This document shows, in pieces, positions 14,258-31,736 of a stretch of DNA of 31,736 nucleotides. The notes beneath the pieces are model-generated. The model did no database searches, was not told the origin of the DNA, and saw only the letters and a program-made list of their open reading frames with translations. Origin of the DNA: Desulfobulbaceae bacterium. Lineage in GTDB: Bacteria; Desulfobacterota; Desulfobulbia; Desulfobulbales; Desulfobulbaceae. The stretch's first letter is position 1. Each line of letters opens with the position of its first letter. The stretch spans positions 1 to 31,736 of the forward strand of contig DRLX01000158.1 in assembly GCA_011322715.1 (NCBI GenBank). Reading direction: 5' to 3'. The translations under genes were made by a program, and so were the position numbers.

Positions 14258-14398
14258 ACCTCATTCGCTAACCGCACATTTCACAAGTGACCTGCTATGA
14301 GGCCGGAAAATACCACTCCTCGGAGTCTGCGCTTACCCGCATGTCTATTGTTTTTACTTAGCCGTCTTTGAAACAATTTGGAGTTTTTACGAGCTCAT
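14246..14398. mobile_element. MITE-like element, family A, copy 2 (left end degenerate)
   Basis: Shares CCTCGGAGT, GCTTACCnGCATnTCTAT, GTTTTTACTTAGCC and TTTTnCGAGnTCAT blocks, in the same order, with 2156-2330; no TSD seen. Confidence 0.7.
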
Positions 14399-14416
14399 AA
14401 GGCCTGCAACCAGAGG

Positions 14417-16680: not shown

Positions 16681-16869
16681 TATCTTGACACTCTACCATA
16701 AAATTGCTACATCAATAAACCTCAAAATGCCTATGATGTTTATCTGAAAATACGCCACGAAGTTTTGTCGTTCGGAACTATTTTCATCATTCGAAGTCTA
16801 CGCTTATCTGTTGTGGCTGGGACGATAAAATATGGTCCAGCCATGCTGGTTATATGGATTCTTGGTCCT

Positions 16870-17895: not shown

Positions 17896-17940
17896 TGAAA
17901 AATCCAGGAGAGAGGGGGTACGGAATAAAACAAAGGAGAT

Positions 17941-18061
17941 AACTGTTCAGGAGCACACCATTTCCGAAGTCTCGCACCTCGCTATCTGCACGGTTAGGCC
18001 TGATTCATAGAGGAATCACTACAGGCCTGCCTTCGTAGATATGGAGCACTCCTGAACAGTT
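17941..18061. mobile_element. MITE-like element, family B
   Basis: Perfect 13-bp terminal inverted repeats AACTGTTCAGGAG / CTCCTGAACAGTT around a 121-bp non-coding segment with internal hairpin AGGCCTG...CAGGCCT; no TSD seen. Confidence 0.65.
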
Positions 18062-18259
18062 CAGACCGTGGCCGGGGAAGTTCCCTGCACCCACCTGAAT
18101 AGTTGCCAAGAGAGAAAAGACGGTTTAAGGGGTTCCAGATAAATAACTATTCCATTCTGCTGGTTTCTTGTTCCTTAAATCTGCAACAAAAAACAGCGCA
18201 TACGGGATAAAATTTTTTGTGGCCCTGAATGTTCCGAAATTCTTCCATCGGGATGGCGG

Positions 18260-28740: not shown

Positions 28741-30134
28741 CAACCGCCGCGCTGTTCATCCTGTTATTTGCCTGCATGCTGCTGGGCATGCCCATTGCCC
28801 TTGCCCTCGGGTTTTCAAGCATTACAACCATTTTGTTCTTTTCCAACGATTCACTTGCTTCGATAGCCTTAAAACTTTTTGAATCGCTGTCTGAACATTA
28901 TACCCTGCTGGCCATCCCGTTTTTCATCCTCTCCTCCGCCTTTCTTTCCACCGGCGGAGTGGCAAAGCGCATTATTCGTTTTGCGCTCAGCCTGGTTGGT
29001 CATATTCGAGGCGGTATCGCCATGGCCTCGGTCATGGCATGCATGATCTTTGCCGCCGTGTCAGGCTCATCTCCGGCAACGGTAGCGGCCATCGGCAGTA
29101 TTGTTATTGTCGGTATGGTCAAGGCCGGGTATCCGGAGAGTTTTGCCGCAGGCGTTATTACCAATGCCGGTACCCTGGGTATCCTGATCCCTCCCTCCAT
29201 CGTCATGCTGGTTTATGCGGCTGCGACCGAGGTCTCGGCCGCCCGGATGTTTATGGCCGGATTCCTGCCTGGTCTGCTCATGGGCCTGATTCTCATGATT
29301 GCCATATATATCGCCGCCCGGGTAAAGAAAATTCCGGCCCAGCCGTGGCGCGGATTTGGGGAAGTTATAAGCTCCGGTGCCGCAGCATTCGGTGGTTTGA
29401 TGCTGATTATTATTGTGCTCGGCTCTATCTATGGCGGCATAGCCAGCCCTACGGAGGCCGCCGCCGTTTCTGCGGTTTATGCCTTTGCTGTGGCTGTTTT
29501 CGGTTATCGTGATATCGGTCCGTTGAAAAATGTTCCATGGAGAAAGGAGGGGGAAAGCAGAGGCGCATCTTTTTCCAGAAATATTGGGCAAATGCTGTTG
29601 GCTCTGCCGAAATGCATCACCGACAAGGACGTAAACAAGGTGTTGCTGGATGCCTCTAAGGTCAGTATCATGCTGCTCTTTATTATTGCCAATGCCATGC
29701 TCTTTGCCCATGTGCTGACCACGGAACGTATCCCCCATCACCTGGCCGAATTGATCGTTCACTGGGGCCTGCCTTCCTGGGGATTTCTGATTGTCGTCAA
29801 CCTGCTCTTACTTGCCGCAGGCAATTTTATGGAGCCTTCGGCCATTCTCCTTATTATGGCGCCGATTCTCTTTCCCATTGCCTTGAAACTGGGCATAGAT
29901 CCCATTCATCTGGGCATTATCATGGTCGTCAACATGGAAATCGGTATGCTGACGCCACCTGTGGGCCTCAATCTTTTCGTTACTGCAGGTATAACCGGGC
30001 ACAGTATCGGCTGGGTCATCAAAGCTGCGCTGCCCTGGCTGCTGCTCTTGTTGTTCTTTTTGATTATTATAACCTATGTGCCGCAGGTATCGCTCTTTTT
30101 GCCTGAATTTCTGGATAAGTTGCACGGATATTAA
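28737..30134 (+). CDS. dctM: TRAP transporter large permease
   Basis: GMPIA.ALG, LLAIPFF, FAAVSGSS, LGILIPPS, MEIG.LTPPVGLNLFV; ATGA overlap with dctQ. Confidence 0.95.
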   Translation: MTTAALFILLFACMLLGMPIALALGFSSITTILFFSNDSLASIALKLFESLSEHYTLLAIPFFILSSAFLSTGGVAKRIIRFALSLVGHIRGGIAMASVMACMIFAAVSGSSPATVAAIGSIVIVGMVKAGYPESFAAGVITNAGTLGILIPPSIVMLVYAAATEVSAARMFMAGFLPGLLMGLILMIAIYIAARVKKIPAQPWRGFGEVISSGAAAFGGLMLIIIVLGSIYGGIASPTEAAAVSAVYAFAVAVFGYRDIGPLKNVPWRKEGESRGASFSRNIGQMLLALPKCITDKDVNKVLLDASKVSIMLLFIIANAMLFAHVLTTERIPHHLAELIVHWGLPSWGFLIVVNLLLLAAGNFMEPSAILLIMAPILFPIALKLGIDPIHLGIIMVVNMEIGMLTPPVGLNLFVTAGITGHSIGWVIKAALPWLLLLLFFLIIITYVPQVSLFLPEFLDKLHGY

Positions 30135-30205
30135 AATTGCAGATTCGGTAGCGGGCAGAGAATCTGCCCGTTGCTCCCTTTGCCCACAATTCCGGGAGAT
30201 TAAAC

Positions 30206-30697
30206 ATGTCCTTATTACCTGAGATAAAAAAAATTCTTTACGTCACGGATTTGGGCAAACATACTCGTCCGGTTTTTCGTTTTGCGCTTAGCCTGGCTCG
30301 CCGATATGAAGCCGCTCTTCTTATGCTGCATGTGGTTGAACCCCTGGGACCGACAGGGAAATTCTACATGGATATTTATCTTAATGAAGATGCGGCGAAA
30401 CATTTTCATGAAGAGGGGAAGCGTGAAGTCCTCGTAAAAATGAAGGAAAGATTGCGCCTGTTCTGCAATGAGGAAGTCGGAGCCTGTGAGATGGGAACTC
30501 CGCCTGTTACTGAAATTCTTGTGTCTTCAGGGGAACCCAGCGAAGAGATTCTTCGTCTGGCGGACAAACATGGGGTGGATTGTATTGTTATCGGAAAAAG
30601 CACCCATGCCCTTTTTGGCGGCAAAATGATGGGATCGACTGCCAGGCGTGTTTCCAGGCATAGCCGGGTGCCGGTAATGCTGGTTCCCAATAAGTGA
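30206..30697 (+). CDS. Universal stress protein (TRAP-associated, TeaD-like)
   Basis: KKILY.TD, LHVVEP, G.P.EEI, D.IVIG, MGS.A..V.R....PV motifs. Confidence 0.9.
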   Translation: MSLLPEIKKILYVTDLGKHTRPVFRFALSLARRYEAALLMLHVVEPLGPTGKFYMDIYLNEDAAKHFHEEGKREVLVKMKERLRLFCNEEVGACEMGTPPVTEILVSSGEPSEEILRLADKHGVDCIVIGKSTHALFGGKMMGSTARRVSRHSRVPVMLVPNK

Positions 30698-30759
30698 CGG
30701 CCGGATGCCGGCCATTTTGACAAAGGGTGTGTCCGTGCGAGTTTAATCAGGTAATTCGC

Positions 30760-30892
30760 TGATAACGTTTGAGCTAACCCACCCCAAGCATTTTATCTGA
30801 TAGCTTTATACGTGATTATGGACTTGGGCAATCCACCAAATTCATTCAGGGAACGGGCGTACTTGGGGTCAGAGTTAAGCGACTTGTTCGGC
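30760..30892 (-). other. attC recombination site (133 bp)
   Basis: On - strand: R'' GCCGAAC, 5-nt spacer AAGTC, L'' GCT(T)AAC, stem ACCCCAAGTA / TGCTTGGGGT, L' GTTAGC, 6-nt spacer TCAAAC, R' GTTATCA. Confidence 0.85.
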
Positions 30893-31117
30893 AACTTTTT
30901 TTGTTGCAGAGACCCATTTTAACCTGAGTTTTTTGTGGGCATGTGCACAATCTTGAAGATACAGATTGATTAAATTTTGATAAGGAATTCCTGTTTCATC
31001 CGCAAGATTTTTGAAGTAATCAATGACATCTACTCCCAAACGTAAAGTAACCTGCTTTTTTAGATGCTTTGCATAAGGATTTCCGACAGATTTTGAGAAA
31101 TCATATTCTTTTTTCAT
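30875..31117 (-). CDS. brnA: BrnA-family antitoxin (RHH-like)
   Basis: MKKEYDFS...NPY...K.VTLRL..DVI.YFK..A.ETG.PYQ.LIN.YL pattern; ATGA overlap with the toxin gene; stop lies within attC. Confidence 0.85.
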   Translation of the reverse strand: MKKEYDFSKSVGNPYAKHLKKQVTLRLGVDVIDYFKNLADETGIPYQNLINLYLQDCAHAHKKLRLKWVSATKKVAEQVA

Positions 31118-31410
31118 GACAGAAAGCTCTCGTATTGTTTTTGTTCTTTTTTTGTTGCTTTCCTGGCCGAAATGATTCTGATAAATTGCTCGTTATTGCC
31201 TCGACAACAATGAACAACTACCAACACTCTCATTGCAGCACTAAGACCAAGTAAAATGAAACGATCTTCATTGACGGAATGATCATCGTCAAAAATCATT
31301 CTTGCATTGGCATCAAAAAACACGGTTTGAGCTTCTTCGAAGGAAACTTTGTGTTTTTTTAGATTACCTTGCGACTTTTTTTCATCCTATTCAAACGATA
31401 TCAGATTCAT
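31114..31410 (-). pseudogene. brnT: BrnT-family ribonuclease toxin with an in-frame amber stop at codon 8
   Basis: From ATG 31410: MNLISFE*DEKKSQGNLKKHKVSFEEAQTVFFD...EDRFILLGLS...RIISARKAT; the TAG (31389-31387) stands where the family has FEWD. Confidence 0.85.
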
Positions 31411-31445
31411 AATTACATTATAATTATATCGTAATGCTATCGCAA
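31411..31445 (-). promoter_or_regulatory. Cassette-internal sigma70 promoter with overlapping palindromic operator
   Basis: TTGCGA-17 bp-TATAAT-GTAATT-ATG; imperfect palindrome ATTAC-GA-TATAATTATA-AT-GTAAT overlaps the -10 element. Confidence 0.8.
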
Positions 31446-31459
31446 GGTTTGTTTTTTAT

Positions 31460-31478
31460 GCAGAACTTGAGGTTAACA
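31460..31478 (-). other. attI-like simple site at the cassette 5' junction
   Basis: TGTTAAC-CTCAA-GTTCTGC: two inverted 7-bp boxes with a 5-bp spacer. Confidence 0.6.
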
Positions 31479-31489
31479 GGAAGGAACAA

Positions 31490-31736
31490 TTATCCCAGGG
31501 CAACATCCAGGGTCATCATCAGGGCGAATCCGACCATGACACCAATGGTTGCGACATCCGAATGCTTTTCCGCCTGTGATTCCGGGATTAATTCCTCGGC
31601 AACCACATAGATCATTGCCCCGGCGGCAAAAGAAAGGGCATAGGGGAGCAGTGGACGCATTAAAAGTACTGCAGCCGCTCCGATGAGACCGGCAATCGGC
31701 TCCACAAAGCCGGAGAGCTGACCGTACCAGAAACTC
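31490..31736 (-). CDS. ZIP-family (ZupT/GufA) metal transporter, 3' part only
   Basis: [13 protein letters not shown]..., [22 protein letters not shown]..., GF.LMM.LDVALG; runs off the window end. Confidence 0.9.

Follow-up and report, generated by a model that had tools for sequence, protein, structure and literature searches.

A lone integron cassette with a brnT-brnA toxin-antitoxin pair at a non-integron chromosomal site of a Desulfocapsa-like vent bacterium

Near one end of the window, by which we mean the whole stretch of 31,736 nucleotides that was analyzed, a 700-bp integron cassette with a brnT-brnA toxin-antitoxin pair and a single attC site lies between two native chromosomal genes, which encode a universal stress protein (USP) and a ZIP metal transporter. 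It is very probable, in our view, that an integron integrase (IntI) inserted this cassette as a circle at a chromosomal site outside any integron, and that the inserted cassette was then inherited, shared with a second species and exposed to decay. Contig C158, which the window covers in full, belongs to a metagenome-assembled genome (MAG) that comprises 595 contigs and is 84% complete. Related records place the group in Desulfocapsa/Desulfocapsaceae, and the sequencing runs that contain the window sequence are hydrothermal-vent metagenomes. The features of the locus are collected in Table 1; throughout, a slash within a sequence marks the crossover point.

Table 1. Features of the cassette locus, in window coordinates.
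Feature	Coordinates	Strand	Details
Universal stress protein (USP) gene	30206-30697	plus	Pfam Usp E 6e-25; convergent with cassette
Integron cassette, 700 bp	31466..30760	minus	own promoter, brnT, brnA, attC
attC, 133 nt	30892..30760	minus	box geometry, covariance models R1 and R2
attC, R''	30892-30886	minus	GCCGAAC; followed by spacer AAGTC
attC, L''	30880-30874	minus	GCTTAAC; one extra base
attC, L'	30778-30773	minus	GTTAGC; followed by spacer TCAAAC
attC, R'	30766-30760	minus	GTTATCA
Right half of reconstructed target	30760..30765	minus	TTATCA; chromosomal sequence now completing R'
brnA, antitoxin, 80 aa, intact	30875..31117	minus	Pfam PF14384 and PF12441 above cut-offs
brnT, BrnT ribonuclease toxin family, 98 codons	31114..31410	minus	Pfam PF04365 E 3e-30
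Sigma-70-like promoter, the cassette's own	31417..31445	minus	TTGCGA-17-TATAAT; 10/12 consensus positions
Left junction and cassette start	31460..31466	minus	G/TTCTGC; GTTCTGC shared by homologous cassettes
Left half of reconstructed target	31467..31478	minus	box TGTTAAC (31478-31472) and spacer CTCAA (31471-31467)
ZIP metal transporter gene, 3' end	31490..31736	minus	Pfam Zip 33.7 bits on fragment

The event that we propose would be a recombination between attC and a site in the genome (attG, or secondary site). In its course, the folded bottom strand of the attC of a circular brnT-brnA cassette of 700 bp would have undergone strand exchange with a single strand of the duplex target at a G/TT triplet in the 85-bp spacer between the convergent USP and ZIP genes, and replication would have resolved the product, leaving target-G/TTCTGC at one end and attC-G/TTATCA at the other. 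The integrase would have been provided in trans by an integron located elsewhere in the genome, of the kind that congeners possess. Insertion in this way would produce a SALIN (single attC lacking integron integrase). Its genes would be transcribed from the autoregulated promoter that the cassette brings along, probably with additional read-through from ZIP, and the cassette would have been passed on afterwards like any other piece of the chromosome. Later, USP and cassette would have moved as one block between two species that are ~10% diverged, by homologous recombination, and decay would by now have reached brnT in this lineage (a nonsense codon) and R' in the other (crossover G to A).

On the minus strand, the ZIP stop codon is followed by 23 nt, G31466, TTCTGC, an A-rich leader, the promoter, brnT, brnA and attC. 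An earlier, sequence-only reading of this DNA had drawn the cassette in the same way, and all the sequence features that it listed were found on the minus strand at the positions it gave, including the ZIP stop codon (TAA, 31492-31490) 23 nt before G31466. Excision of 30766-31465 (700 bp) in silico yields TGTTAAC-CTCAA-GTTATCA, which reproduces the site reconstructed in that reading, and the crossover triplet G/TT is present at both cassette junctions. The left half of this target is chromosomal and is located 11-23 nt past the ZIP stop, and homology with other brnTA cassettes ends exactly there. At the junction itself, G31466 is derived from the target, and TTCTGC is the rest of the cassette's own R' box. 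The cassette start, GTTCTGC (31466-31460), is complementary to the cassette's own R'' (GCCGAAC) at six of seven positions, as had been claimed, and to the R'' of homologous cassettes, GCAGAAC, at all seven; this complementarity is a sign of a formerly circular cassette. The cassette shows neither terminal inverted repeats nor a target duplication, and it has no transposase.

The cargo is a BrnT-family toxin gene followed by an overlapping BrnA/CopG-type antitoxin gene, the ATG of brnA overlapping the stop codon of brnT (ATGA). The promoter in front of them overlaps AT-rich palindromes that are kept in homologs and are likely the BrnA operator. The toxin reading frame is not intact: codon 8 of brnT is an in-frame TAG (31389-31387), and the Pfam match in Table 1 was obtained with this TAG read as W. 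At position 31388 the sister genome (G004) and the metagenome runs X9 and X12 differ from the window, having TGG, for the tryptophan that is present in all homologs; in run X14, from another study, a contig is identical to the window across this codon. Judging from these sequences, the toxin is knocked out only in this lineage, and brnA is intact. BrnA has 365 detectable relatives in many phyla known for large integrons, and many of these relatives have an attC directly after the gene.

The attC site shows the canonical 5/6-nt spacers and the one extra L'' base that the sequence-only reading had pointed out. L'' and L' pair at six of six positions apart from the extra base, the AAC/GTT cores are present, and the crossover is placed between G30766 and T30765. 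The site further contains an 8-bp stem, ACCCCAAG/CTTGGGGT. Its '' arm is another 2 nt longer beside the L box, where two of three base pairs are broken that are intact in the closest homolog (L025). R'', spacer and L'' together form the last 18 nt of brnA.

For a strict geometry scan we demanded ..AAC, a 5-nt spacer, a 7-nt L'' with one bulge, a 6-nt L', a 5/6-nt spacer and GTT, with L'' fully complementary to L' apart from the bulged base. The attC was the sole match in the window. Across the 3.19-Mb MAG, geometry alone is at chance level, with 77 matches against 59 in a shuffle; the inner-stem energy of our site, −17.2 kcal/mol, is the best of all geometry matches, compared to −9.9 kcal/mol for the best shuffled one.

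With the same scanner we picked 16 high-confidence seed sites near brnA homologs in other genomes, which show the textbook attC layout, including the extrahelical A three base pairs beyond L''. Three of them were misplaced in a first MAFFT alignment (A1) and were dropped for a second one (A2), so that covariance model R1 was built from 13 of the 16 seeds, none from this genome. Around brnA homologs, R1 detected 35 attC sites, of which 34 point the same way as brnA, and from these 35 we built a second model, R2. In the alignment of the 35 sites, 84.6% of the cells are paired, compared to 26-40% when the partners are slid, and double changes occur in 17 of the 21 model pairs; compensatory change is heavy. 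Both models, which are stand-ins for the attC model of IntegronFinder and give rough E-values, match 30892..30760 over its full length, R1 with 25.5 bits (E 8e-5; next match in the window E 6.4) and R2 with 37.2 bits (E 1e-8; next match in the window E 0.36). In the whole MAG, the site is the only R1 match at E ≤ 1. The sequence-only reading had named the failure of an attC covariance model as the result that would count against it; since the models come from other genomes and match the site from end to end, the result went the other way.

Rfam yielded no match to an attC family, and an evalue-mode scan of 30000-31736 gave chance matches only. Unconstrained DNA folding of the whole 133-nt site was no better than that of shuffles (z = 0.92), but this is a poor test for a long attC with an unstructured center, and the structured parts of our site are the R box, the L box and the 8-bp stem only.

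Homologous brnTA units with 74-80% nucleotide identity were found in G025, G022, G033 and L025. In G025, G022 and L025, GTTCTGC marks the exact start of similarity to the window, with unrelated sequence upstream, and the similarity ends within the attC. The copy in G025 (C238) is part of an array with two attC model matches, and inspection of the contig edge by eye shows the 3' end of one more attC; the next cassette in this array also begins with the complement of its own R''. Further arrays with multiple attC sites surround brnA homologs, for example in L030, L068, L073, L078 and L087. The covariance models and the boundaries of the homologous cassettes thus bear out the earlier proposal of a genuine integron cassette with a real attC.

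One of the homologs is itself solitary. In a Desulfocapsa sp. MAG (L025:2653-3358, JANTGG010000112.1), a related brnTA cassette with 80% nucleotide identity and an attC of 44 bits is located alone inside an apparent IS200/IS605-type tnpA gene, part of which is missing, with GAATT on both sides. It represents a second lone insertion of this cassette family, at a different site.

A search for IntI in our MAG found none, the best TIGR02249 match reaching 81 bits against a cut-off of 265. Tyrosine recombinases on three contigs were considered as candidates. Those on C109 and C138 (81 and 76 bits at best) are each encoded directly upstream of an IS91-family transposase gene, and we read them as IS-associated and not as IntI; the one on C544 (81 bits) is far under the 265-bit cut-off. 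Among the 41 genomes searched, 24 contain an IntI above the curated cut-off, including the sister genome, and most relatives of the same genus have a strong match. The sister genome has three intI loci, of which the one on C134 has attC sites in divergent orientation and is a complete integron. The MAG does contain a second canonical attC (C109:278..207, minus strand, 72 nt, 48.6 bits with R2; G000, L123), followed by a small lysine-rich ORF. It adjoins a repeated unit that is also found on C138 and consists of a frameshifted tyrosine recombinase gene and the IS91-family transposase gene. Most likely, this attC belongs to a cassette array that the IS has interrupted and that is missing from the assembly, so that an array is, or once was, probably present in the organism.

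The cassette is part of a larger block that is shared with the sister genome. Positions 30163-31482 (1,320 bp), which take in USP and its leader, the whole cassette and a further 16 bp past it, differ from G004 at four positions (99.7% identity; L010, L121), whereas on either side of this interval the difference is ~10%; on average, G004 is 88-90% identical to the window. In the metagenomes, a 1,662-nt Logan contig (X12) has flanks of the G004 type on both sides of the block, and a 365-nt Logan contig (X14) is identical to the window across the junction of cassette and ZIP. Near-identity of the block between such diverged flanks points to its spread by homologous recombination, and the pattern suggests that the block would have passed between the two species recently, in this way or in a gene-specific sweep.

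This sharing has a bearing on where the integrase acted. It is quite possible, if somewhat short of an even chance, that the IntI event never took place in this genome, and that the cassette was inserted once, in a congener, from which the block was imported by homologous recombination. Such an import would need no integrase here, in cis or in trans, and differs from our main explanation in the last step only. The four differences in 1,320 positions between flanks ~10% apart are as expected for it, as are the two flank types joined to the same block in independent Logan contigs and a MAG in which no IntI was found. This lineage could equally well have been the donor, however, and on the right the tract extends past the cassette by only 16 bp, a short length for an exchange by RecA; moreover, given the canonical attC on C109, the MAG may well have an unassembled integron with IntI. 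The earlier conclusion that IntI must have acted in trans or been lost is in agreement with the search of the MAG but needs to be qualified, as the MAG is incomplete, IntI is common in the genus, and the block may have reached this lineage by homologous recombination, with no IntI acting in the lineage itself.

Under our main explanation, insertion by IntI and subsequent sharing were followed by decay, and two changes within the block fit this course. The first is the nonsense codon in brnT. The second is at position 30766, where the crossover G of R' (GTT) is replaced by A (ATT) in G004 and, at high depth, in X9, which cuts the R2 score of the attC from 37.2 to 30.9 bits. The two lineages thus have one derived change apiece, in the toxin here and in the attC crossover in the lineage of G004, and both changes are probably disabling. 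The lone cassette in L025 also has ATT at the crossover position, and its occurrence there and in G004 and X9 is possibly a recurrent immobilization of stranded cassettes. The sequence-only reading had seen in the locus a snapshot of cassette escape, a description that does not hold for an insertion that is fixed, is common to two species, recurs in vent metagenomes from several studies and has already begun to decay.

The ZIP gene runs in the same direction as the cassette, is 82-89% identical in congeners, and is cut by the end of the contig. In congeners USP and ZIP are neighbors, which confirms that the cassette is located between native chromosomal genes, as had been proposed. The gap between them, without cassette, is 26-60 bp in G010, G007 and G002. 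In G008 (77-84% identity to the window in the flanks), the sequence is continuous across the junction and reads ...CTGATAA-TTACATGC-GGTTACAGG..., with 8 nt and then GGTTA, where the window minus 30766-31465 would read ...CTGATAA-CTTGA-GGTTAACAGG... In addition, a contig of run X10 that is ~12% diverged from the window skips from 30669 to 31490, with 43 nt between. Since USP and ZIP are adjacent without a cassette in four congeners, the 700 bp are extra DNA and represent an insertion.

Cassette-free relatives had been expected to show the predicted junction, and this expectation was disappointed: the exact 12-mer, CTCAAGTTATCA, was seen in none of the relatives searched and in no metagenome contig, the latter scanned for the exact pattern with a gap of 0-10 nt allowed. 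The cassette-free relatives are too diverged (72-84% identity) for the missing 12-mer to be decisive. A search of runs X9, X10, X12 and X14 for the empty-site allele of the same strain returned only the occupied allele or the ~12%-diverged relative.

The congeners also speak to the origin of the cassette in place. That the cassette is all that remains of a decayed integron, or of an attC cluster (CALIN), at this locus, and not a single-cassette insertion, is very unlikely, even though CALINs and degraded integrons are common and our contig ends 270 bp beyond the cassette, which leaves one side unseen in the assembly. The four congeners have USP and ZIP directly adjacent, the extra DNA is exactly one cassette with G/TT at both ends, and in the sister genome an 11.9-kb contig (C343) that continues past ZIP has neither IntI nor an attC match. 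Even less credible is an arrival of brnTA by transposition or illegitimate recombination, with the supposed attC being an imperfect palindrome or terminator after brnA: toxin-antitoxin modules move in many ways, the folding energy of the whole site is unremarkable and its box geometry is at chance level genome-wide, but the full-length covariance-model matches, the R''/L'' boxes kept in homologs within attC arrays, the complementarity of cassette start and R'', and the lack of terminal inverted repeats, target duplication and transposase all argue against it.

At the ZIP stop codon, the spacer between USP and ZIP in G008 (L011:2150-2330) has an additional segment of ~150 bp, with the ends GGTAACT...AGTTACC and a duplicated CTATCCC, which gives it a MITE-like look. 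A 79-nt palindrome in this spacer appeared attC-like to our first scanner; neither covariance model scores it.

What kind of site the cassette entered has to be judged from the inferred ancestral target. Its crossover, G/TTAT, fits the GWTMW consensus, as the sequence-only reading had noted, and also the G/WT of attG. That reading had further called the site attI-like. The geometry behind this label is real: as in an attI simple site, a 5-bp spacer separates two 7-bp boxes in inverted orientation (6/7), and the right box has the crossover at its inner edge. The label itself is weakly supported. Inverted boxes with 6/7 matches and a 5-bp spacer occur at 157 of the 97,096 GTT sites in the MAG (0.16%), and with spacers of 3-8 bp at 0.96%; the dyad geometry is thus unusual, but it was noticed after the fact. 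Unlike an attI simple site, the target has no direct-repeat accessory binding sites and no intI next to it on the contig, and it is not conserved in G008 or other relatives, which show a plain USP-ZIP order. It also appears to lack resemblance to the intI-proximal regions of congeners: at 10 such loci, in which attI is unmapped, the best match had at least 8 mismatches in 22 positions, which is chance level. A CRGM motif of the IntI1 type, defined at +6..+9 for IntI1 only, was considered and is not claimed for the target, being out of register by one position (the target reads AGCG at +6..+9 and CAGC at +5..+8). We call the target an attG-type site with dyad symmetry and not an attI; the attG concept fits better.

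Hotspots of the attG type with the geometry of an attI simple site have been proposed as evolutionary precursors of attI. One could imagine that the target is such a natural hotspot, a dyad site bound by a dimer of the Desulfocapsa IntI, and that the toxin-antitoxin cassette acted as an addictive marker that aided the sweep of the USP and cassette block across the species boundary. We consider this combination rather unlikely.

The cassette matches the published SALIN category and its attC × attG route, and so represents a known type of event, not a new one. SALINs have been described as products of attC × attG recombination with GWT at the crossover, and 3,400 of them were counted in 2,469 of 21,105 complete genomes (Loot et al., bioRxiv 10.1101/2022.09.11.507474). 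Like these, our locus has a single cassette with its attC at a G/WT in an ordinary chromosome, with no integrase or other att site nearby, and expression is possible from its own or a neighboring promoter. The window contains one attC with a coding sequence, no other attC better than E 0.36, and no IntI on the 31.7-kb contig, in agreement with the lone cassette of the sequence-only reading. The published work is a computational census with assays in E. coli using IntI1, whereas the present case is a natural one, from a Desulfocapsa-like vent bacterium whose congeners have cassette-free loci. Here, in addition, the target is dyad-symmetric, the IntI1-specific CRGM is out of register, and later spread and decay are visible.

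Classical examples of insertion at secondary sites are resistance cassettes on plasmids. In contrast, the cassette studied here carries a toxin-antitoxin pair and is located in the chromosome backbone of an environmental bacterium. It has in common with the secondary sites of IntI1, whose consensus is GWTMW / GNT (PMC4618277), the fit of G/TTAT to GWTMW and the fixation of a cassette outside an integron.

CALINs resemble our locus in having attC-bearing cassettes without a neighboring intI. They differ in having at least two attC sites and in that they may be remnants of an integron; the one attC and the conserved flanking gene order found here indicate the insertion of one cassette. A further comparison is with the toxin-antitoxin cassettes of sedentary chromosomal integrons, which likewise are type II pairs with their own promoter, packaged as cassettes (e.g. 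PMC11023631). Relatives of our brnTA cassette are found in arrays in many phyla. In arrays, these pairs are thought to stabilize the array, whereas here the pair is alone, has nothing to stabilize, and its toxin is knocked out.

The insertion of cassettes outside integrons has been shown experimentally only recently, in E. coli, and has been counted in genomes as SALINs. The value of the present case is that the cassette, both junctions, empty loci, a sister with a complete integron and the later fate of the insertion can be read together, and natural cases of this kind help to confirm that this insertion route is functional in environmental bacteria. The present case leaves the general view of integrons as it was. 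It adds that the cargo can be a self-expressed toxin-antitoxin pair and not a promoterless adaptive gene, that a landed cassette would have traveled between ~10%-diverged species in a 1.3-kb block without an integrase, and that two lineages independently lost different functions of the cassette, toxicity through brnT in one and mobility through the crossover G of R' in the other.

Elsewhere in the window, three short stretches of ~90-170 bp each (~17940-18105, 16738-16852 and 14310-14400) match the sister genome at 79-95% identity, the first in at least 20 places, the second in ~8 and the third in ~6. They represent small, dispersed MITE-like repeats that members of the genus share.
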